A stretch of 64,000 bases of DNA. Origin: Terracidiphilus sp. (GTDB taxonomy: Bacteria > Acidobacteriota > Terriglobia > Terriglobales > Acidobacteriaceae). The notes below the pieces were generated by a model. The model saw only the letters and a list, made by a program, of their open reading frames with translations. It did no database searches and was not told the DNA's origin. The stretch spans positions 47,550-111,549 of the forward strand of contig JBEKNY010000005.1 of NCBI GenBank assembly GCA_049522315.1. Reading direction: 5' to 3'. Of this stretch, positions 10,590 through 64,000 are shown piece after piece. A program made the translations under genes and the position numbers. Every line of letters begins with the position of its first letter. Positions within the stretch are counted from its first letter, which is position 1.

Positions 10590-12764
10590 TCAGGCTCGCA
10601 GCCGCGCTCCTGCCTTGCCAACAGCCTCCGCCACGCGCGCCTGGAAGCTCTGCAACTCCTCCTCGCGCAGCGTGCGGTCCGGCGCCTGGAAGGTCGCGCC
10701 CAGCAGCAGCGCATACTCACCCTTACCCAGCCGCGTGTCGCGGAACACCTCGCGCACGCGCCACTCCACGAGCTCCGGAATCCCGATCTCCGCCATGGCG
10801 CGATCGATCGTCTCCCACGGGATGCTCTCGTCGAGCACCAGCGAGAAGTCCCGCCGCACTGGCTGATACCGCGAGATCTCCCGCGCCGCGGGTTTGCGAA
10901 GGGAGAGCTTGTAGAGCCGGTCGAGATACAGCTCGCCCACCAGCACAGCCTCTTTGATCTTGCGCGCCGCCGCCTCGCGCGGATGCAGTTGCCCGAACCA
11001 CCCCACCGTCATCCCATCGGCCACCGCGCGCGCCGCGCGATATGGATGCAGCCATTCGGGCGTCAATCCAGCCTCCGCAGGAAAACGGTCGAAGTAAAGC
11101 GCTCGCGTCTCGAACCGCGCCAGCACCTGCTCCACAACGCCCTTCACGTCGTGGAATTCGATCGTCCGCCCCGCGTGCAGCGCGCTCTCCTCGGGCAAGC
11201 TGCCCACGGCGCCAAACGCCAGCGCCGGCCGCTCCTCTACCTTGTCTGTCGTGCCGCCGAACGCCGTGCCCAGCTCAAACAGCCGTACGTCGTCCACGTC
11301 CCGGTTCAGGTTGCCCGCGATCATCGTTAACATGCCCGGCACAAGCGACGGCCGCAGCACGCCCGCCTCTTCGCTGAGCGGATTGCCCAGCGGAACCACC
11401 TGCCCGGGTTGCGGCGCGGTCAGTGCTGCCTCGGCCCCAGAGCAGAAGGTGCTCCCAATTGCCTCGTGGAATCCGGCCGCCAGCAGCGTGCCGCGCGCCG
11501 CCGCCTCCTTCTCCGCCCATGGCAGCGCCTGCACTCCCCCACCGAACGCCGGCAGCGTGTTGGCGAACCGGTTGTACCCGTATACCCGCGCGACCTCTTC
11601 AATCAGGTCGATCTCCCGCTCAAGGTCCAGCCGCCAGCTTGGCAGCGTCACCTGCCACGAATCCTGTTCAAAGGTCTGCCCCACCGCAGGTGGCTGACTC
11701 GCTGACTCGTCCGCCGCGGCGGACTGACTTGCTAGCTCACATCCCAGCGCCTCGAGCACGCCCTCAACCATCGCCGCGGTAATTCCTTCTTCGTCCACTG
11801 TCGCGCCCAGGATCCGCTGGACCTGGTTCAACGCGAGTGCAATGGGCCTGCGCCGCGCGGTCCGATCCTCGATTGCAGGCACACGTACATCCACCAGCTC
11901 GCCCTCTGCCCATCCGCCGTTCGCCAGCAGAATCGCGCTCACCAGCGCCGATGCTACCGGCGCGGCGTTAAAGTCCGCCCCGCGCTCGAAGCGATGGCTC
12001 GCGTCGGTGTGCAACCCATGCCGCCGCGCCGTTTGCCGCACTGCCATGGGATCGAACCATGCCGCCTCGACGAGCACGTTCTTCGTCTCCGGCGTGATCA
12101 TCGTGTCCCATCCGCCCATCACCCCGGCCAGCGCCAGCGCCTTGCTGTGATCGGCCACTACCAGGTCGTCCGCGTCCAGCACGCGCTCCATACCGTCCAG
12201 CGTCTTCAGCCGCTCGCCCTTGCGCGCCCGCCGCACGATGATCCCGCCCTCGACCTTGTCCAGATCGAAGACGTGCGTCGGCTGGCCCATCGCCAGCCAG
12301 GCAAAGTTGGTCGCGTCCACGGCGTTCGAGATCGTCTTTTGATCGAGCAGCCCAAAGTAGGTGGCCACCTCGGCGCCCTTGAACCAGTCCTTCGATTCGC
12401 CGATGGTCACATCGCGCAAAACACGCGCCGTAAACCGTCCGCACGCATCCTCCGCCTCGATGCGCACTGCATACGGCATTTTCGCCGGCCGCGCCGAGGG
12501 CAGCGCGAAATCCAGCGCCGGCAACGCGATCCCATAAATCGCCGCCGCCTCGCGCGCCACGCCGTAGTGGTTCATTGCATCTACGCGGTTGGTGGTGATG
12601 TCCATTTCGTAGATTGAGCCATCGCCGATCGAGCCGTTCCGCTCGCCCAGCGGATAATTCCCTTCAACCGCAATCCCGCGCAGCGTCAAATCCTCAGCCA
12701 GTTGCGCATCGTCAACCGCCAGCCCAGGCAAATAAGCTCGCAGCCATTTGGTTAGTATCTTCAT
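10590..12764 (-). CDS. pheT: Phenylalanine-tRNA ligase beta subunit
   Basis: MKILTKWL, ITTNRVDAMNHYGVARE, TDASHRFERG, DLEREIDLIEEVARVYGY and the FDX-ACB tail. No N-terminal tRNA-binding OB domain is evident. Confidence 0.97.
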   Translation of the reverse strand: MKILTKWLRAYLPGLAVDDAQLAEDLTLRGIAVEGNYPLGERNGSIGDGSIYEMDITTNRVDAMNHYGVAREAAAIYGIALPALDFALPSARPAKMPYAVRIEAEDACGRFTARVLRDVTIGESKDWFKGAEVATYFGLLDQKTISNAVDATNFAWLAMGQPTHVFDLDKVEGGIIVRRARKGERLKTLDGMERVLDADDLVVADHSKALALAGVMGGWDTMITPETKNVLVEAAWFDPMAVRQTARRHGLHTDASHRFERGADFNAAPVASALVSAILLANGGWAEGELVDVRVPAIEDRTARRRPIALALNQVQRILGATVDEEGITAAMVEGVLEALGCELASQSAAADESASQPPAVGQTFEQDSWQVTLPSWRLDLEREIDLIEEVARVYGYNRFANTLPAFGGGVQALPWAEKEAAARGTLLAAGFHEAIGSTFCSGAEAALTAPQPGQVVPLGNPLSEEAGVLRPSLVPGMLTMIAGNLNRDVDDVRLFELGTAFGGTTDKVEERPALAFGAVGSLPEESALHAGRTIEFHDVKGVVEQVLARFETRALYFDRFPAEAGLTPEWLHPYRAARAVADGMTVGWFGQLHPREAAARKIKEAVLVGELYLDRLYKLSLRKPAAREISRYQPVRRDFSLVLDESIPWETIDRAMAEIGIPELVEWRVREVFRDTRLGKGEYALLLGATFQAPDRTLREEELQSFQARVAEAVGKAGARLRA

Positions 12765-12820
12765 GACGTCTCGTTCTGCAAGCTAGCGTCCGCTTGCGCG
12801 GACGTTTGCTGGTTAGCAAG

Positions 12821-26597: not shown

Positions 26598-28286
26598 TCA
26601 CAGCCCCAGCTTCTCCCACATCGCGTCGACCTTCGCCTTCGTCGCGCGGTCCATCTCGATCATCGCCGGCCACGGCCGCTCGAAGCCTTCGGCCTTCCAC
26701 TTGCGCGTGGCGTCCACTCCCATTTTCGATCCGTAGTTGGGCAGGCGGCTCGCATGGTCGAGCGAATCGATGGGGCCAAGAGTAAATTGAATGTCGCGCT
26801 CGGGATCGATGTTATTCGCCACGCGCAGGACGACCTCGGGAATGTTCTGCACGTCGCAGTCCTCATCAACCACGATGATGCACTTGGTGAACATGGCCTG
26901 GCCCAGCGACCAGATGGCGTGCATCACCTTGCGCGCGTGGCCCGGATAACTTTTTCGGATCGATACGATCATCAGGTTGTGAAAGACGGCCTCAACGGGC
27001 AGATGAATATCCACCAGCTCGGGAATCGTCATCTTCATCGCGGGCAGAAAGATACGCTCCACGGCCTTGCCCATCCATGCGTCCTCCATTGGCGGCTTGC
27101 CGACAATAGTCGCGGCGTAGATGGGATCTTTACGATGTGTGACGCAGGTGAGGTGAAAGACCGGGTACTCGTCCTCAAGCGTGTAGAAGCCCGTGTGGTC
27201 GCCGAAGGGACCTTCCGCGCGCAGCTCGCCCAGCTCCACGTAGCCCTCGAGAACAATCTCCGCGTGCGCCGGGACCTCAAGGTCGACGGTCTCGCACTTC
27301 ACGATTTCGACAGGTTTGCCGCGCAAAAAACCCGCAATCAAGAACTCCTCGACCTCGGGCGGAGCCGGCACAACGGCCGCGAACGTCGTTGCCGGATCGG
27401 TGCCGATGGCTACGGCGACTTCAAGCCGCGAGCCTTTGAGAGCGCCAACGGAGACCTGCGGCGTGCCAGCGAGAGGGCCATCGGGAATGCTGACCGCGCC
27501 GCCGGCCGATTCGGCCATGATGGCTACGCGCGCGGCTTCGGCGCTCTGCGTGGGATCGGCCGACGCCGCAGCGGCGTTGCGCAGCGCCTCGCGGTAGTGT
27601 TCGGCGGCGACCTTCTGCCGCTGCCAGTGCATGCCCGTGGTCTGGCCGTCGTACACCTGCATGCGATACATACCCATGTTGCGTTTGCCGGCGCCTCCGC
27701 CTCTTCCAGGGTCGCGCGTGTGCACGCAGGGCAGCGTGATGAAACGCCCGCCGTCCTGCGGCCAGCATTTGAGAATCGGAAAATAGTTGAGGTTGAACTT
27801 CTCTCGCCGGATCATTTCCTTGCACGGCGCGTCTTTGGCGTTCACGATTTTCGGGAACGCGTTGGAGAACTCTCCCAGTTGCGGCAGCATTTTGAGTTTG
27901 TCGAGCAGACCTTCAGGCGCCTTCACGTTCATCAGGCCCCCGATCTGAGAATTGATGCGCGCGGCAATCTCGTCGAGCCGGTCGACACCCAATGCCAGCG
28001 CCATGCGCCGCTCGCTGCCGAACTGGTTGATGAGAACCTTGTGGCCGGGATGGCCCTTGACGTTTTCGAACAGCAGCGCTGGCCCGCCGGGAGCATATTT
28101 CGTTTCGGAAGCGTAGGCCGGGCCTTTGATCCCTGACCCCTGACCCCTGACCCCTGTCTTCGACACGCGGTCGGTAATCTCGGTGATCTCGAGCTCGGGC
28201 GAAACCTCTTCGCGGATGCGGCGGAGCTCACCATGTTTTTCGAGCGTTTTGATCCAGTCGCGCAGATCGTCGTAGGCCAAGGGCAT
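26598..28286 (-). CDS. ubiD: UbiD-family decarboxylase (probably menaquinone biosynthesis)
   Basis: YDDLRDWI, GGPALLFEN, EGPFGDHTGFY, GKPPMED, DHAS...GSKMGVDATRK. Confidence 0.93.
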   Translation of the reverse strand: MPLAYDDLRDWIKTLEKHGELRRIREEVSPELEITEITDRVSKTGVRGQGSGIKGPAYASETKYAPGGPALLFENVKGHPGHKVLINQFGSERRMALALGVDRLDEIAARINSQIGGLMNVKAPEGLLDKLKMLPQLGEFSNAFPKIVNAKDAPCKEMIRREKFNLNYFPILKCWPQDGGRFITLPCVHTRDPGRGGGAGKRNMGMYRMQVYDGQTTGMHWQRQKVAAEHYREALRNAAAASADPTQSAEAARVAIMAESAGGAVSIPDGPLAGTPQVSVGALKGSRLEVAVAIGTDPATTFAAVVPAPPEVEEFLIAGFLRGKPVEIVKCETVDLEVPAHAEIVLEGYVELGELRAEGPFGDHTGFYTLEDEYPVFHLTCVTHRKDPIYAATIVGKPPMEDAWMGKAVERIFLPAMKMTIPELVDIHLPVEAVFHNLMIVSIRKSYPGHARKVMHAIWSLGQAMFTKCIIVVDEDCDVQNIPEVVLRVANNIDPERDIQFTLGPIDSLDHASRLPNYGSKMGVDATRKWKAEGFERPWPAMIEMDRATKAKVDAMWEKLGL

Positions 28287-28323
28287 GCTCCCCGGCGGTA
28301 ATGGCCGCCTTCAACCCTTTAGC

Positions 28324-32283: not shown

Positions 32284-33774
32284 CTAAAACTTCAACCGGC
32301 GCAGAAACGTGGGCACATCCAGATCGCGCTCTGGTTGCTCATTGGGCTCGGTGTAGAGCGACGCCGACTGTTGCGTACCGGCCTCTACTGTTTCCATTAC
32401 GCCCTGCGGAGTCTCTGCGAAATCCGCGGCATAGTCCCTGGGCGGGGGCGCGGGCCGGGATCCCGTCTCTATCCCCTCGAATCGCGGCTCCGGCGCAGCG
32501 GCCACGCTCTCGCGTTTCGATCCAGACTCCCCCGCATGTTCCGCAGCCGCTTTCTCCTGCGGAGCGGCTACGGTTACTGTGGTCGCCACGCCCGGCGCAG
32601 CCGAGGCAAAAAAGAACCCGTTATCCGCGCTCTCCGTCGCTGCTTCCTCTTCCTCGCTTAGAAAGCGCGCCGGCGCAGAGACAGGCTCCGGTTCGCTTTC
32701 GCGCATCCAGTTGTTGGGCGCGACCACCGGCACTGAAACCACCGGCGTCTCCTCCACGTTCAGCATGCGCGCGCGCCGCTCCGGCATCTGGTCGCGGAAG
32801 CCGGTGGCGATCACGGTGATCTTCACCTCTTCATTCATCTTTTCGTCGAGCACGGCGCCGAAGATGATGTTTGCGTCTTCGTGCGCGGCCGATTGAATCA
32901 GCGATGATGCTTCATTCACCTCCGAGAGCTTCAGCGAAGTCGATCCGGTGATGTTGATGAGGATGCCGCGCGCCCCGTCGATGGCGCCCGCTTCGAGCAA
33001 AGGCGAAGCCATCGCCGCCTGCGCCGCTTCCACGGCGCGGTTGGCGCCCGAGCGCACCGCCGTGCCCATCACTGCGTGGCCCATTCCTGCCATGGTTGTC
33101 TTCACGTCGGCAAAGTCGCGATTGATGATGCCGGGGATGGTGATGATGTCGCTGATTCCCTGCACTCCCTGCCGCAGCACGTCGTCGGCGATGCGGAAGC
33201 TCTCGAAGAATCCCGCATCCTTGGCTACGACCAGCAGTTTTTCGTTGGGGATCACGATCATCGTGTCCACGCTCTCTACCAGCTCTTTCAGCCCGCGCTC
33301 GGCCTGCGTGAGGCGGCGCTTGCCCTCAAACGCAAACGGCCGCGTGACCACGGCCACGGTCAATATGCCCATCTCGCTGGCCAGCGAGGCGATCACCGGC
33401 GCGGCCCCGGTGCCCGTGCCGCCGCCCAGGCCTGCCGTCACAAACACCATGTCGGCGCCTTCAAGCGCTTCGATGATCTTCTCCGAGTCCTCCAGCGCGG
33501 CGCGGCGGCCTATGTCGGGATTCGAGCCCGCGCCCAGCCCCGAAGTGAGCCGGACTCCCAGTTGCAGCTTCACCGGCGCCTGCGAAAGCTTGAGCGCCTG
33601 CACATCGGTATTCGCGGCGATAAACTCCACGCCTTCCAGGTGCGCCTGGATCATGCGGTTCACGGCATTGCTGCCGCCGCCGCCCACGCCGATCACCTTG
33701 ATATGTGCGTCGCGCATTGTCTCTTCGTGGAATTGAATGCGCATCTCTCCGGCTTCATTCTTTGGCTGTTCCAT
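32284..33774 (-). CDS. ftsZ: Cell division protein FtsZ with a long acidic C-terminal linker
   Basis: [23 protein letters not shown] and the C-terminal core DVPTFLRR. Confidence 0.98.
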
Positions 33775-33877
33775 TGGGGCTCCGCTCTCCTCGTCTTGAA
33801 TCCGTTTTTCCAACGTTGTTCCCCTCGCTCCGCCACCGTTTTTCTGATCCCTGATCCCTGAAACCTGTTCCCTGTTT

Positions 33878-35098
33878 CTAAAAGCTCGCTGCAAACATGG
33901 CGCGTAACTTGTTGCGCAAACTGCTGTTGTTATCCTCGGCCGCGCGCGTCATTCTGGTTCGGTTCGCATAGAGAACCATGCCGATGGCCACGGCCCAGGC
34001 AGGGTGATTCAGTTCCTGCGGCATGTGCGACAGGCGCACAGGCAAACCCATGCGAGCCGGCGCGCGCAACTGGCTCTCAGCAACGTCGAGCATACCGGGT
34101 AACATGGCCCCGCCGCCGGTGAGCACGCAGCCCGCGCCCAGCGCATCCACCACCCCGCCATAGCGCAGGCTTTCTTTCACGTAGTACATCAGCTCGCGCG
34201 CCCGCGGCTCCAGGATCTCCGCCATGGTGCGCAGCGGCAGCGCGGCCGGCGCGCCCTGCGATGTGGTGATTTCGATCTCCGCCAATTGCGGAACCGCCGT
34301 CACCACCGCATTCCCATACTGCCGCTTCAGCTCTTCCGCCTGTGACACCGGCAATTGCAGTCCAATGGCGAGGTCGTTGGTGAAGTGCGCTCCGCCGATG
34401 GGAACCGACGCGGTATATGCAACCGCACCCTCGAAAAAGACCGCAAGATCGCTCGAGTGCGCGCCAATATCGAGCAGGCATACGCCCAACTCGCGTTCGT
34501 CGGCTGAGAGCGTGCACTCGGCTGCAGCCAGCGACTCCAGCACCGCTTCCGAAACCTCCAGCCCCGCGCGGTTGGCGCAAGTGACCGTACTTTGCAGCGC
34601 GCTGCCCGAGCACGTGGCGATGTGCAGCTCCACTTCCAGCCGCGCGCCCACCATCCCCACCGGATCGAAGATGCCCGGCTGCTCGTCGAGGATGAACTGC
34701 CGCGGCAGCAGGTGCAGAATCTCGCGGTCTGCGGGGATCTCGATGGCGCGCGCCCGGCCAATGGCGGCACGCACGTCCTCGCCGGTAATCTCGCGCATGC
34801 CGCGGCTCAACTGGAATCCGCCGTTGCTGTTCAGCCCGCGAATGTGCGGCCCGCCCACGCCCGCAACGCACCCATCGATATTGATGTGGGCCACTCGCTC
34901 GGCCTGCTCGTTGGCCGCGCGCACCGCCTTTGCCGCGGGCGCGAGCTCCCCCACGAGACCCTTGCGCATCCCGGCCGACGGCGCAGCGCCATGGCCGAGA
35001 TAGCGCAGCACTCCATCGTTCACATCGGCCGCCAGCACGCGTGTCCATGCACTGCCGATGTCGAGCACCACAATCGGGTTGTCCTGCCTCTGGCCCAT
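33878..35098 (-). CDS. ftsA: Cell division protein FtsA
   Basis: [34 protein letters not shown]; amphipathic C terminus. Confidence 0.97.
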
Positions 35099-49835: not shown

Positions 49836-49909
49836 AGGTCAACTCCTTGAGCGCTGATGTCGCCGATTGCCTCTAGTCCCTACGTCCCTAGTCCCTTAGT
49901 CCCTGCTTC

Positions 49910-61160: not shown

Positions 61161-61937
61161 ATGTTTGCACTCGCCGTCGCGCCCTACATCGCGGGAATGC
61201 CCGGCTCGCGAGCGGCCCACGTAGCGCGGCAGCGCGCCGTCGCCGCGCACCCTCACCTGCTACACTCTCTCGTTGTGCTCCTTGCCGGTCTTGCCATCGC
61301 TGCCGCCGCCTACCTGCTCGGGTCCATCCCCACGGGATACCTGCTCGTCCGGCTTTTCCGCCGCCAGGACATTCGCTTCATAGGCAGCGGCAATATCGGC
61401 GCCACCAACGTCCTGCGCGCCGGCGGCAAAGGTCTGGGCGCCGCCACCTTTGTCCTGGATGTCCTCAAGGGCTGCGCTTCGGTCTGGGGAGTTGCTCCGC
61501 TTCTCGGCTTGCTGCTGGCCCACGGCCTGCTCGGCTTCCTGCCTGACCCAGGCACGGCGCTGCGCAACCTTCAGGCCCTCGCCGCGCTCTCAGCCGTGCT
61601 CGGCCATATGTTCCCCGTCTGGCTGCGTTTTCGCGGAGGCAAGGGAGTGGCCACCGGCTTTGGCGTTTTTCTCGTCGCCGCCCCCTCGGCTGCTCTGGCT
61701 GCCATCGGCGTCTTTGCCGTCATGTTTGCCCTTACCCGCTACGTCTCGCTCTCGTCCATCGTCGGCGCGGCCAGCTTTCCCGTCTTCGCCTGGTTCCTTG
61801 TCTCTGGGCCGCGCCCGCCTGTTTTCTTCGCCGTCCAATGCATTGTTGCCCTGCTCATCGTTGCCCGGCACCACCAGAACATCCGCCGCCTGCTCACCGG
61901 CACGGAATCCCGATTCGGAGCGAAAAAACCAGCATGA
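61161..61937 (+). CDS. plsY: Glycerol-3-phosphate acyltransferase PlsY (start uncertain)
   Basis: YLLGSIPTG, GSGNIGATN, GHMFP...GGKGVAT, RHHQNIRRL. Confidence 0.96.
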   Translation: MFALAVAPYIAGMPGSRAAHVARQRAVAAHPHLLHSLVVLLAGLAIAAAAYLLGSIPTGYLLVRLFRRQDIRFIGSGNIGATNVLRAGGKGLGAATFVLDVLKGCASVWGVAPLLGLLLAHGLLGFLPDPGTALRNLQALAALSAVLGHMFPVWLRFRGGKGVATGFGVFLVAAPSAALAAIGVFAVMFALTRYVSLSSIVGAASFPVFAWFLVSGPRPPVFFAVQCIVALLIVARHHQNIRRLLTGTESRFGAKKPA

Positions 61938-63088
61938 GCCGCATCGCCATCTTAGGTTCCGGCGCCTGGGGAACGGCCATCGCTCTCTCCCTCCACCGCC
62001 GTGGCGGCCACCAGATCATTCTCTGGGCCCACACCCCCGAGCTCGCCCACCAGATTCTTGATGCCGGTGAGAATACGCAATTTCTTCCCGGCTTTCCCAT
62101 CCCCCCCGCGATCGCCGTCACCGCTGACTGCGCCGCCATCACCGCCGCGGATATTCTGGTCTCCGCCATCCCCTCGGAGTTCCTGCGGCCCACCCTCCTC
62201 CGTATCCGCACGCATCTGCGCAACGGCCAAATCGTCCTCAGCGCGACCAAGGGCGTAGAAGACCGCACCTTCCTGCGCATGACCGAAGTCCTCGCCGATT
62301 GCCTCGGTCAACAGCAGTCGTCGCGTCAGGGCACGACGCGGCCCCCTCTGGGCCTCGTGCCGCAACCGGACGGGGAGAATTCGGGGGCTTCAGCCCCCGT
62401 CGCGCTAACTCCGCCTGCTCCGCTAACTCCGCTTTCTAGTCCCTCGTCCCTCGTCCCTAGTCCCTGTCTTCCTCCCATCGGCGCGCTCTCTGGCCCCAGT
62501 TTCGCTCTCGAAGTCGCCCAGGGCCAGCCCACCGCCGTCACCGTGGCCTTCACTGACCCGCAAGTCGCCGCCCTCGTCCAGCAGGAGTTCTCCTCCGAAT
62601 CCCTCCGCCTCTATACCTCCACCGATGTCATTGGCGTCGAGCTCGGCGGCGCGCTCAAAAACGTCATCGCCATCGCGGCCGGCATCGCCGTGGGCGTGGG
62701 CCTGGGCTCTAACTCCGCCGCCGCCCTCATCACCCGCGGCATCGTCGAGATCACGCGCCTCGCCGTGGCCTGCGGCGCGCGCCGCGAAACCCTCGCCGGC
62801 CTCTCCGGCGTGGGCGACCTGGTGCTCACCTGTACCGGCTCGCTCAGCCGCAACCGGACTGTCGGAGAACAACTCGGCCAGGGCCGCAAACTGCCGGAGA
62901 TTCTCGAATCTCTCGGCGGCAAGGTGGCGGAAGGCGTCCTCACCACCCGCGCCGCTCTCGGCCTCGCCCGCAAGCACGGCGTCGAGATGCCCATCGCCGA
63001 GCAGATGGAACTCATTCTGAATAAGGGCAAGGACCCCCGCGAAGCCATCCGCGACCTCATGCTCCGCCCCGGCAAAGAAGAGCGCTAA
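61934..63088 (+). CDS. gpsA: NAD(P)H-dependent glycerol-3-phosphate dehydrogenase with an internal ~50-aa insertion
   Basis: ILGSGAWGTA, ATKG, LSGPSFA, GGALKNVIA, GDLVLTC...SRN, AEGV. Confidence 0.96.
   Translation: MSRIAILGSGAWGTAIALSLHRRGGHQIILWAHTPELAHQILDAGENTQFLPGFPIPPAIAVTADCAAITAADILVSAIPSEFLRPTLLRIRTHLRNGQIVLSATKGVEDRTFLRMTEVLADCLGQQQSSRQGTTRPPLGLVPQPDGENSGASAPVALTPPAPLTPLSSPSSLVPSPCLPPIGALSGPSFALEVAQGQPTAVTVAFTDPQVAALVQQEFSSESLRLYTSTDVIGVELGGALKNVIAIAAGIAVGVGLGSNSAAALITRGIVEITRLAVACGARRETLAGLSGVGDLVLTCTGSLSRNRTVGEQLGQGRKLPEILESLGGKVAEGVLTTRAALGLARKHGVEMPIAEQMELILNKGKDPREAIRDLMLRPGKEER
62310..62470 (+). repeat. In-frame palindromic and heptamer repeat insertion inside gpsA
   Basis: GGCACGA..TCGTGCC and CGGGGGCT-TC-AGCCCCCG palindromes, CGCTAACTCCGC twice, and GTCCCTC/GTCCCTA heptamers. 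Confidence 0.8.
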
Positions 63089-63156
63089 ACCGCCCCCGGC
63101 AAACCCTGCGCCGAACCGCCCGCCCCCACTCCGGCACGGGCCATCGGTCCCTCTTC

Positions 63157-63202
63157 TCTGATCTCTGATCTCTGTTCCCTGTTCCCTGTTCCCTGTTCCC
63201 TG
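63157..63202. repeat. Heptamer tandem repeat (TCTCTGA/TTCCCTG), one of about 12 such arrays in the window
   Basis: CTCTGAT twice, CTCTGTT once, then CCCTGTT repeats. Confidence 0.85.
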
Positions 63203-63357: not shown

Positions 63358-64000
63358 TTACATCGAGATGCTGATCGCAATTCCGATGCCCGGATACCTG
63401 TCGTCGTACAGGTAGTAACCGTCGTTCTCGTAAACCACGTAGACGTCGTCGGTGTCATACCAGTCATTCGACCAGTATCCCGGCCATGGGTCGAGAAGCG
63501 TAATCCAATAGCCGTTGTACTGGAAACGCGGGTATCCATTAAAGACCATGAAGGGAAGACCGTAGATCCGAAACACATTCCGCTGCCCAAAGTAGCCGCT
63601 GTACCGAGCGTCAGGAACACGGTAGCCGTTGTAGCCGCCGCGTTGTTGCCAGTTGCGGTGGTCTGACTGCCAGTTCCCTGCGCGGTGATTTTGCCAGGTG
63701 GTCTGCTCCTCACGCTGCTGTGCGTCGGTGCGCTGCGGTTGCTGTTGTTGCCGCTGCGCCTGCCTCTGGTTGTTCTGGTTCTGCTGTTGCTGGGCGCGCT
63801 GTTGCTGCTGCGCCTGTTTCTGTATGTTCTGGTTCTGCTGTTGCTGGGCGCGCTGTTGCTGCTGCGCCTGCTTCTGTGTGTTCTGGTTCTGCTGTTGCTG
63901 GGCGCGCTGTTGCTGCTGCGCCTGCTTCTGTGTGTTCTGGTTCTGCTGTTGCTGAGCGCGCTGTTGCTGCTGCGCCTGTTTCTGTGTGTTCTGGTTCTGC
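63358..64000 (-). CDS. Gln-rich repeat protein with a W/Y-rich C-terminal domain (5' end lies outside the window)
   Basis: The minus frame is open to the window edge: (QNQNTQKQAQQQQRAQQQ)n, then WQQRGGYNGYRVP...RFQYNGYWITLLDPWPGYW...DDVYVVY. Confidence 0.85.
   Translation of the reverse strand, partial: QNQNTQKQAQQQQRAQQQQNQNTQKQAQQQQRAQQQQNQNTQKQAQQQQRAQQQQNQNIQKQAQQQQRAQQQQNQNNQRQAQRQQQQPQRTDAQQREEQTTWQNHRAGNWQSDHRNWQQRGGYNGYRVPDARYSGYFGQRNVFRIYGLPFMVFNGYPRFQYNGYWITLLDPWPGYWSNDWYDTDDVYVVYENDGYYLYDDRYPGIGIAISISM
63772..64000 (-). repeat. 54-bp tandem repeat (at least 4.2 units)
   Basis: Units start at 63772, 63826, 63880, 63934 and 63988. Confidence 0.95.

Follow-up and report, generated by a model that had tools for sequence, protein, structure and literature searches.

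Selfish repeat DNA as the probable source of an in-frame, disordered surface loop in the glycerol-3-phosphate dehydrogenase GpsA of a Terracidiphilus species

The gpsA gene of a Terracidiphilus species, encoding NAD(P)H-dependent glycerol-3-phosphate dehydrogenase, an essential enzyme of lipid synthesis, carries an in-frame insert that consists of repeats. Most probably (about 0.8 by our estimate), this extra loop of GpsA arose when selfish repeat DNA settled at a surface position that permits insertions, and its translation product is now a disordered passenger peptide. A copy of a dispersed two-hairpin element of the repetitive extragenic palindromic (REP) type forms the 5' half of the insert, while tandem nonamers and heptamers make up the 3' half. 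The gene is located in a stretch of 64,000 nucleotides (nt), here called the window, which corresponds to positions 47550-111549 of contig C5 of the metagenome-assembled genome (MAG) G000 (33 contigs, 3.6 Mb, 61% G+C). Positions given without a contig refer to the window. The nearest public relatives are labeled Terracidiphilus sp. or Acidobacteriaceae and originate from peat, fen, and bog.

The gpsA open reading frame (ORF; 61934-63088, plus strand, 384 amino acids plus stop) encodes a bona fide GpsA in which both the NAD-binding and the substrate-binding domains are present. Pfam domains NAD_Gly3P_dh_N (E = 9.5e-40) and NAD_Gly3P_dh_C (E = 3.1e-54) were detected, the PDB entries 1z82 (Thermotoga) and 3k96 were matched with E values of ~1e-62, and orthologs were found in 29 of 31 related genomes. 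Invariant alignment columns include S186-G187-P188-F190-A191 and K242-N243, and the GPSFA and K-N-V motifs are intact. A preliminary description of this stretch, made from the sequence alone, had noted about 50 extra codons between RMTEVLADCLG and IGALSGPSF, and this was borne out by the orthologs. In GpsA of G000, 55 residues separate VLADCLG from PIGALSGPSF, compared with a loop of about 6 residues (EPAGLL) in 73 of 99 orthologs collected from related genomes, which corresponds to a net gain of ~49 amino acids. The loop measures 11 to 60 residues in 26 of the 99, and in the solved Thermotoga structure (1z82) a single residue lies between the positions aligned to query residues 125 and 181. 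Orthologue alignments and structure prediction thus both delimit a lineage-specific loop at residues 126-180 (QQQSSRQGTTRPPLGLVPQPDGENSGASAPVALTPPAPLTPLSSPSSLVPSPCLP; 62309-62473, plus strand). An AlphaFold2 run on a 39-sequence alignment yielded a confident GpsA fold with predicted local distance difference test (pLDDT) values of <50 at residues 129-177. As the insert is bordered by helix 116-123 and strand 182-186 and comes directly ahead of the GPSFA motif, the low pLDDT values there predict a disordered surface loop.

The repeats that had been recognized in the insert beforehand, namely, a nested palindrome, a second palindrome, a 12-bp direct repeat, and GTCCCT heptamers, were all recovered position by position. 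However, the two palindromes had been read as separate structures, and this reading did not hold: together they form one RAYT-associated (REP-associated tyrosine transposase) element of the REP type, ~73 nt in length. A diverged full-length copy of this element, identified with cmsearch and nhmmer, occupies 62320-62405 on the minus strand. Its hairpin 2 (62330-62361) has the outer stem GGCACGA (62330-62336)/TCGTGCC (62355-62361). In the G000 gpsA copy, the canonical 4-nt loop of this hairpin is exchanged for a nested hairpin, in which GGCCC (62340-62344, preceded by cgc) and GGGCC (62350-62354) are separated by cctct. Hairpin 1 (62382-62399) consists of the arms CGGGGGCT (62382-62389) and AGCCCCCG (62392-62399) on either side of TC, its canonical form being GGGGCT-AA-AGCCCC. 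The 3' half contains two arrays detected by Tandem Repeats Finder (TRF) on the plus strand: ~3.5 to 4 nonamer units of the CGCTAACTC/CTAACTCCG type (62403-62438; peptide ALTPPAPLTPL) and 4 heptamer units, GTCCCT(C/C/A/G) (62439-62466; peptide SSPSSLVPSP). The 12-nt direct repeat CGCTAACTCCGC at 62403 and 62421 belongs to the nonamer array. When the insert was compared with the genome by BLAST, as the preliminary description had suggested, additional copies were returned for the tandem-repeat half alone; those of the element half were recovered by regular expression and profile searches. A single-copy segment conserved as protein in distant relatives, the pattern that had been set against a repeat origin, is not what was found, as the repeats of the insert have other genomic copies and most relatives are without the insert.

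The element match in the gpsA insert exceeds chance. A covariance model (R1) was built from 25 genomic copies, excluding the one in gpsA, and was run with cmsearch over the 64-kb window with filters off. It matched 62320-62405 (minus strand) with 27.1 bits and an E value of 3.1e-5 for the whole window, covering model positions 1-73. This was the best match in the window, the second best having an E value of 0.36. The sole irregularity is a stretch of 18 nt that replaces the 4-nt loop of hairpin 2 and forms the GGCCC/GGGCC stem. With the insert as the sole target, nhmmer matched the part from hairpin 1 to the stem alone (13.6 bits, E = 6.9e-5). The canonical CCTGA end of the element is kept in the relatives L021, L022, and L054. 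Terminal inverted repeats were not found at the gpsA copy. The sequence GTCGCG, present at both ends of this copy, was considered as a target-site duplication and rejected, since it is a derived state found in G000 and the relative L023 only.

The dispersed element was discovered with a stem-anchored regular expression, followed by profile searches of the genome. The outer-stem search (GGCACGA...TCGTGCC) returned 22 genomic sites, mostly GGCACGAC-TGAA-GTCGTGCC followed by CTTTCAA, and the aligned flanks of these sites revealed a unit of ~73 nt with two hairpins. The unit consists of atCCCTCAGGGGCTAAAGCCC, ~20 variable nt ending in TTTRC, the hairpin GGCACG(A/G)CTGAAG(T/C)CGTGCC, and CTTTCAAAAC, with the consensus CCCTCAGGGGCTAAAGCCC-N~20-TTTRC-GGCACGRCTGAAGYCGTGCC-CTTTCAAAAC. 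A hidden Markov model (HMM) made from 19 copies detected 68 genomic copies at E < 1e-3, of which 56 were intergenic, 8 lay inside genes, and 4 were partial according to a rough gene map made here. Compensatory changes preserve the stems: at pair 56-63, 14 sequences have A-U and 11 have G-C, and G-C pairs are swapped to C-G in hairpin 1. Subfamilies share near-identical spacers (for example, at least 8 copies of ...CCCGTATTTTCCTGCATTTTTCGGCCCGGCTAAAGCCGTGCCCTTGTTACAA), which suggests recent amplification. Adjacent inverted pairs were observed at C1:468582-468629 with 468651-468724 and in L073 (1113-1183 with 1205-1276); most copies, including that in gpsA, are singlets. Of the Acidobacteriaceae genomes sampled, 8 of 23 had the strict pattern of hairpin 2 plus CTTTCAA, which was absent from all of ~275 other Acidobacteriota. 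The GTAG/CGTC tag was not conserved ahead of hairpin 2, where the copies mostly read TTTAC, TTAGC, or TTTGC, and GTAGC occurred in 1 of 36. The element was therefore kept out of the GTAG and CGTC superfamilies. At C1:366378-366450, C1:608306-608378, and C12:43729-43800, the element is held within a larger unit bounded by the inverted repeats GGTAGTGTCTCAGTTTGA and TCAAACTGAGACACTACC, which looks like a REP carrier resembling a MITE (a transposable element of miniature size with inverted repeats).

The genome encodes two Y1 transposases. One of them (C1:468558-469169, minus strand) matched the NCBIfam model NF047646, REP-associated tyrosine transposase, with 111.5 bits (cut-off, 80) and has the HFH and YIHLNP motifs. 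Two copies of the element, inverted relative to each other, border this RAYT gene, one upstream (469175-469245, plus strand) and one overlapping its 3' end (468651-468724, minus strand), and single-strand transposition of the RAYT/IS200-like kind is therefore the likely means of mobilization. The near-identical intergenic copies and the apparently intact RAYT gene make ongoing activity of the element family plausible. The RAYT ORF (L102) probably starts with TTG. It has no stop codon before the downstream element copy and reads through it, ending in ...IPQGLKPANFDGPVGGTAEAVPFQN..NGHDFSRAA.... The second Y1 gene (in L101, C2:180500-181800) is an IS200-like TnpA that scored 50.3 bits with NF033573, below the 55-bit cut-off, and 69.8 bits with Pfam Y1_Tnp, above the cut-off. 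A repeat of ~90 nt (CGTCCCTACGGGACTCGAAGCCGT...CCCACGTTRAAACGCGGGGCTAACAACCATCGCGCCTACGGCGC) is present in direct orientation on both sides of this gene; it is unrelated to the two-hairpin element and represents a second transposase-associated repeat family.

Comparison of the loop among relatives distinguished several kinds of inserts. Class A comprises G000, L023, L021, L022, and, more distantly, L054, with inserts made up of the element and heptamers, to which nonamers are added in G000 and L023. Inserts homologous to that of G000 were thus found in at least four further species-level MAGs. In class C (L064 and L070), the loop contains a near-canonical element, oriented as in G000 (nhmmer E values of 1e-12 and 1.5e-9, respectively), and gpsA is 87 nt longer than in the sister species L091, L010, and L098, which lack the element. 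Repeat-only loops contain nonamers (L024 and L061) or heptamers (L025 and L051) and no recognizable element. Class B (L056, L067, L071, L076, and L095) has an unrelated, conserved insert of 46 to 59 residues. A quick maximum-likelihood tree was computed from GpsA after masking of the loop. In it, class A and L024 together formed one clade (SH-aLRT support, 99), and class C fell within a different clade (98). A third clade (87) held 5 of the 6 sequences labeled B, a label that here included L081, and L054 paired with L025 elsewhere (86). As classes A and C belong to separate clades, the element has entered the loop at least twice.

The repeated filling of this loop by different inserts marks it as a repeatedly used permissive site. 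Since the site tolerates insertions, different lineages of the genus have filled it independently, and the distribution of insert kinds indicates several such occasions. An alternative for some of these cases is that alleles moved between species. The loop of L024 reads CAGGGC, TCGTCCCCAAC, and TCCGCTAAC in succession and resembles class A without the stem-loop and hairpin 1 segment. The element may therefore be older than the split of L024, with partial loss in that lineage. A perfect nested stem occurs in G000 alone, those of L021, L022, and L023 being imperfect; the outer stem has 1 mismatch in L023, and most of the pairing is lost in L054. The gpsA copy is old, is common to four to five species, and is decaying. 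The class B peptide, found in another Terracidiphilus clade, is of the NLEVFTE..VSSSGIAPAP type (..NPDTNLEVFTE..APEVSSSGIAPAP..). Its coding sequence was considered as a further dispersed repeat and rejected, as two of its own genomes contain it in a single copy and the L067 query found no match in the genome of L095.

The 14 distinct insert lengths among the orthologs are all divisible by three, and none of the inserts contains a stop codon, as would be expected of an insert traversed by ribosomes but not of one removed from the RNA. In class A, the ratio of nonsynonymous to synonymous substitution rates (dN/dS) was 0.55 to 0.83 in the insert, compared with 0.14 to 0.18 in the remainder of gpsA. 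The region folds with a minimum free energy (MFE) of -46.4 kcal/mol (z = -1.3 versus shuffled sequences), that is, no better than shuffled sequence, and a selected RNA structure in the insert region was not supported. We conclude that this peptide is tolerated as a nearly neutral passenger, with selection acting only on its reading frame and openness.

In the sequence of events that we consider most probable, a two-hairpin REP-type copy of ~73 nt would have joined gpsA in minus orientation. Its presence is read directly from the sequence, and its arrival could be explained by RAYT/IS200-like single-strand transposition, in which the hairpins are recognized and no target duplication is produced. 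Nonamers and heptamers of types found genome-wide, mainly in intergenic regions, adjoin the element. These tandem repeats vary in kind and copy number among sister species, which indicates rapid change of this part by gain and loss of repeat units. Selection would finally leave only in-frame, stop-free variants, because the C-terminal catalytic domain must stay in frame, with the peptide itself nearly unconstrained and the hairpins decaying.

Several observations weigh against this interpretation or parts of it. The gpsA copy is diverged, with its nhmmer score of 13.6 bits corresponding to an E value of 0.19 at whole-genome search space, and the 18-nt replacement in its hairpin 2 loop is unexplained. 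The element is without the conserved GTAG or CGTC tag of described REP superfamilies, and its link with the RAYT gene is one of flanking position only. Translation of the insert was deduced from conservation of the frame. The order of events may also have been different, as either the element or the tandem repeats may have arrived first. Finally, L054 has a homologous insert and yet falls outside the main insert clade, in a tree that is weakly resolved.

Other explanations account less well for these data. Retention of the insert for a use, either as a flexible GpsA loop for docking or regulation or as an mRNA hairpin that slows translation between the domains, is improbable. The insert has persisted through several speciation events, and between G000 and L023 its dS is lower than that of the rest of the gene (0.075 versus 0.212), a difference that rests on 3 synonymous differences. 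However, dN/dS approaches 1 in the insert, the stems decay in sister species, length and composition vary freely between species, the RNA fold is unremarkable (z = -1.3), and the 73 orthologs with the short loop manage without any insert. We regard as slightly less probable still a low-complexity expansion by slippage only, in which no mobile element took part and the palindromes resemble the dispersed element by coincidence. The 3' half does consist of tandem-repeat DNA, in which units are gained and lost, the inserts of L024, L025, L051, and L061 consist of repeats only, and the gpsA copy has a low nhmmer score. Slippage does not explain why the R1 match (E = 3e-5 in the window) spans all 73 positions, including the two hairpins, the length of the spacer, and the TTGC junction, why L021 and L022 retain the canonical ...CCTGA... 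end, or why near-canonical copies occupy the same site in L064 and L070.

Removal of the segment after transcription or translation, as in an intron or intein, would leave a mature GpsA with a normal loop. Nothing supports this directly, although the single-stranded segment is highly structured (MFE, -46 kcal/mol), and we give it very little credence. Scanning the whole window against Rfam at gathering thresholds matched no family, which argues against a group I or II intron; 165 nt is far below the size of an intein, and intein motifs are lacking. Splicing would also give no reason for 14 lengths that are all stop-free multiples of three. A chimeric join induced by repeats within gpsA during assembly has to be considered, as the genome is a MAG of 33 contigs and the insert is composed of repeats. 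It is the least credible of these explanations: homologous in-frame inserts are present in independent MAGs (Stordalen fen, SPRUCE, and Danish MFD bins; L021, L022, L023, and L054), and the substitutions among them are phylogenetically consistent. Insertion of selfish repeats into a permissive loop thus remains the preferred explanation.

The element is also found in frame within other long ORFs that have coding signal on both sides, and in five of them, Pfam domains are intact around the insert or span it. In MnmG (C8:104313-106484) it lies between GIDA_C_1st and SAM_GIDA_C, in CarB it splits the preATP-grasp domain, and RecN (C10:49680-51842) contains several copies. The DALR_1 domain of ArgS spans 154 residues for a 117-position model, and the RNase H domain of UvrC (C1:259440-261659) spans 234 residues for 159 positions. 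The ArgS copy is missing from 12 of 14 same-genus genomes. In-frame copies in ComEC and in a putative mannosidase ORF were judged on coding-potential score only. The element is translated as ...LKGHDFSRA..GALAPE... in one orientation and frame and as ...PQGLKP..GTAEAVPFQN... in the other orientation, and the gpsA copy uses a third frame (GTT..VPQ..SGASAP). RecN contains three consecutive partial or complete element-derived peptides (..GLVKGHGGAPSG.., ..SVLKGHDGAP.., and ..GLVKGHGFSRA..GALAPEG). A second extra segment is present in the GIDA domain of MnmG (ESGPTNDESGAPGPSPLGTRDSSAADPPEIPRPIRPHRR), with a heptamer-type PLGTRD motif. UvrC also contains two copies of the peptide repeat EPVILS..(K/R)(G/R)VEGSAVA(F/L)PEP, which probably represents a further in-frame repeat family.

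Heptamer arrays are likewise in frame within Pfam envelopes, namely, those of LeuS (editing domain), TrmD, Dus (DusB), LarC, GcvPB, and a UbiD-family protein, and the linker of a fusion of AMP-binding, acyl carrier protein (ACP), and acyltransferase domains holds in-frame heptamers in a 54-residue run of the GIRDQGS type. The preliminary description had named pheT and the UbiD-family gene as further cases of in-frame insertion, and only the latter was supported. In the UbiD-family gene (26601-28310, minus strand), an in-frame heptamer array at 28127-28156 (minus strand; peptide GVRGQGSGIKG) splits UbiD_N in two. In pheT (10593-12782, minus strand), neither a match to the element nor a tandem array of the family types was found; the only tandem repeats returned were an 8-mer in 2.1 copies and a 6-mer in 2.5. 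A second stretch that is lineage-specific, of ~70 residues, lies inside the UbiD Rift-related domain of the UbiD-family protein, which Pfam matches in two stretches.

The heptamers and nonamers themselves are widespread. TRF reported 445 period-7 rows genome-wide, which merged into 327 arrays of at least 21 nt, with families that include GATCCCT, CTAGCTT, CCCTGTT, CAGGGGT, and CCCTAGT, and the nonamer CTAACTCCG forms ~38 arrays. A total of 265 of the 327 heptamer arrays (81%) are fully intergenic, while ~19% of the genome is noncoding in the gene map made here. Arrays of (CCCTNNT)4 were present in 24 of 25 same-genus genomes and sporadically in the neighboring family. The array that had been likened to the heptamers of the insert (49874-49904) is of the same GTCCCTA type and is intergenic, located at 49873-49904 between ilvD and ilvB. 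Another intergenic array, of the TCCCTGT type with 7.9 units, lies 60 nt past the gpsA stop codon (63148-63202). The possibility that element and heptamers travel together as a composite unit was rejected, since 0, 3, and 4 of the 56 intergenic elements had an array within 30, 60, and 100 nt, respectively, compared with 2.4, 3.1, and 3.8 for random intergenic controls. Given this lack of positional association elsewhere, the gpsA loop was taken to combine three independent repeat classes.

It is a doubtful but conceivable proposal that the 7-mers and 9-mers are not simply passive products of slippage and constitute a separate repeat system of the whole genus, which would reach new sites through a copying process not yet described. 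If this were the case, these units, which have no stop codons in the frames used, would repeatedly create hypervariable disordered linkers in GpsA, LeuS, TrmD, DusB, LarC, and UbiD, and the gpsA loop would be a coding "microsatellite" whose length varies from one population to another and perhaps inside a single population.

The first description of palindromic selfish DNA inserted in frame came from Rickettsia. Such insertion is an already known kind of event, although apparently one not yet described for this bacterial group. The preliminary description had gone further and proposed an analogous repeat-driven process of in-frame insertion that is active here. The first part of this proposal stands, as the repeats are mostly intergenic and other conserved genes have been hit. 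The second part cannot be drawn from gpsA: the copy there is old and decaying and is therefore no proof of current activity by itself. The element resembles the Rickettsia palindromic elements (RPE; Ogata et al. 2000, 2002) and the protein-coding palindromes of Wolbachia, in-frame repeats that are cited in PMC3733652, in that palindromic selfish repeats lie in frame in surface loops of many unrelated housekeeping genes, are presumably translated, and have no evident function. In contrast to RPE, whose host is obligately intracellular, the present element is found in a soil bacterium that lives freely, a candidate transposase can be identified, and the gpsA insert also contains 7-mers and 9-mers. 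The likeness is one of behavior, and membership in the RPE sequence family is not claimed.

Among described systems, REP and REPIN elements with their RAYT transposases ("REPtrons") in Escherichia coli and Pseudomonas are a close parallel (Di Nocera et al. 2013, PMC3733652; Bertels and Rainey 2011, PMC3116915). Shared features are a short hairpin repeat in tens of copies, mostly extragenic placement, compensatory stem changes, and, as in the REPtrons of PMC3733652, inverted copies on both sides of one gene matching the RAYT model; some adjacent inverted copies may also correspond to doublets. Di Nocera et al. note that many intragenic REPs sit in replication and repair genes, and the occasional in-gene copies in recN and uvrC are in line with this. 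However, a REP is a single palindrome of 20 to 40 nt, whereas the present element has two different hairpins separated by a variable spacer of ~20 nt, is without a conserved superfamily tag, and is hosted by Acidobacteriaceae. PMC3733652 also describes sharply defined acidobacterial Y1 transposases, "TIRYTs," flanked by terminal inverted repeats. Neither the two-hairpin element nor in-frame acidobacterial copies are described in the REP/tyrosine-transposase section of PMC3733652 or were found in it by term searches, and a full-text literature search for the characteristic element peptides returned no paper.

Small mobile repeats within genes are also known from Coxiella burnetii (MITEs; PMC5896051) and from enterobacteria (RU/ERIC-type sequences; PMC2759123). 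Like the element described here, these are small nonautonomous repeats that add peptides to annotated proteins; unlike them, as they have terminal inverted repeats, the gpsA copy has neither such repeats nor a target-site duplication. The heptamer arrays recall the STRR sequences of cyanobacteria and the intergenic TAACTGA repeats of Beggiatoaceae (PMC4679880), and heptameric repeats have been reported in Xanthomonas and Nostoc (PMC4692102). In common with STRR and TAACTGA, 7-nt arrays occur at hundreds of mostly intergenic sites, with several related units per genome and an origin that is unexplained. They differ in their units (CCCTNNT, CTAGCTN, and others), in the companion nonamer family, and in that a minority of the G000 arrays lie in frame in conserved enzymes, with peptides of the GIRDQGS or SLVPSP type.

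These observations suggest that in-frame palindromic insertion is not limited to the reduced genomes of intracellular bacteria and extends to free-living soil Acidobacteriaceae, with the additional aspects that a candidate RAYT transposase is identifiable and that two further tandem-repeat classes contribute. Most unusual is that one enzyme loop has been filled repeatedly across the genus and that unexplained 7- and 9-nt tandem repeats contribute to coding sequence. Independent filling of the same GpsA loop provides a natural map of the tolerance for 40 to 60 disordered residues, and the loop variants are a natural set for studying how selfish DNA turns into protein sequence. For annotation, such inserts inflate and split domain matches in housekeeping proteins and give rise to spurious "hypothetical" peptides (...KGHDFSRA... 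and ...GTAEAVPFQN...).

Two further repeats were observed in the window. A heptamer array of the CTGATCC type (33844-33874) is located in what is probably the 5' untranslated region of ftsZ (ORF 32287-33948, minus strand); FtsZ was considered as an in-frame heptamer case and rejected, as the array is upstream of the likely start codon and outside the protein. The final part of the window (63746-64000) is taken up by 4.7 copies of a 54-nt tandem repeat (95% matches), which continues past the last position and encodes, on the minus strand, a Q/N-rich repeat (QNQNTQKQAQQQQRAQQQ).

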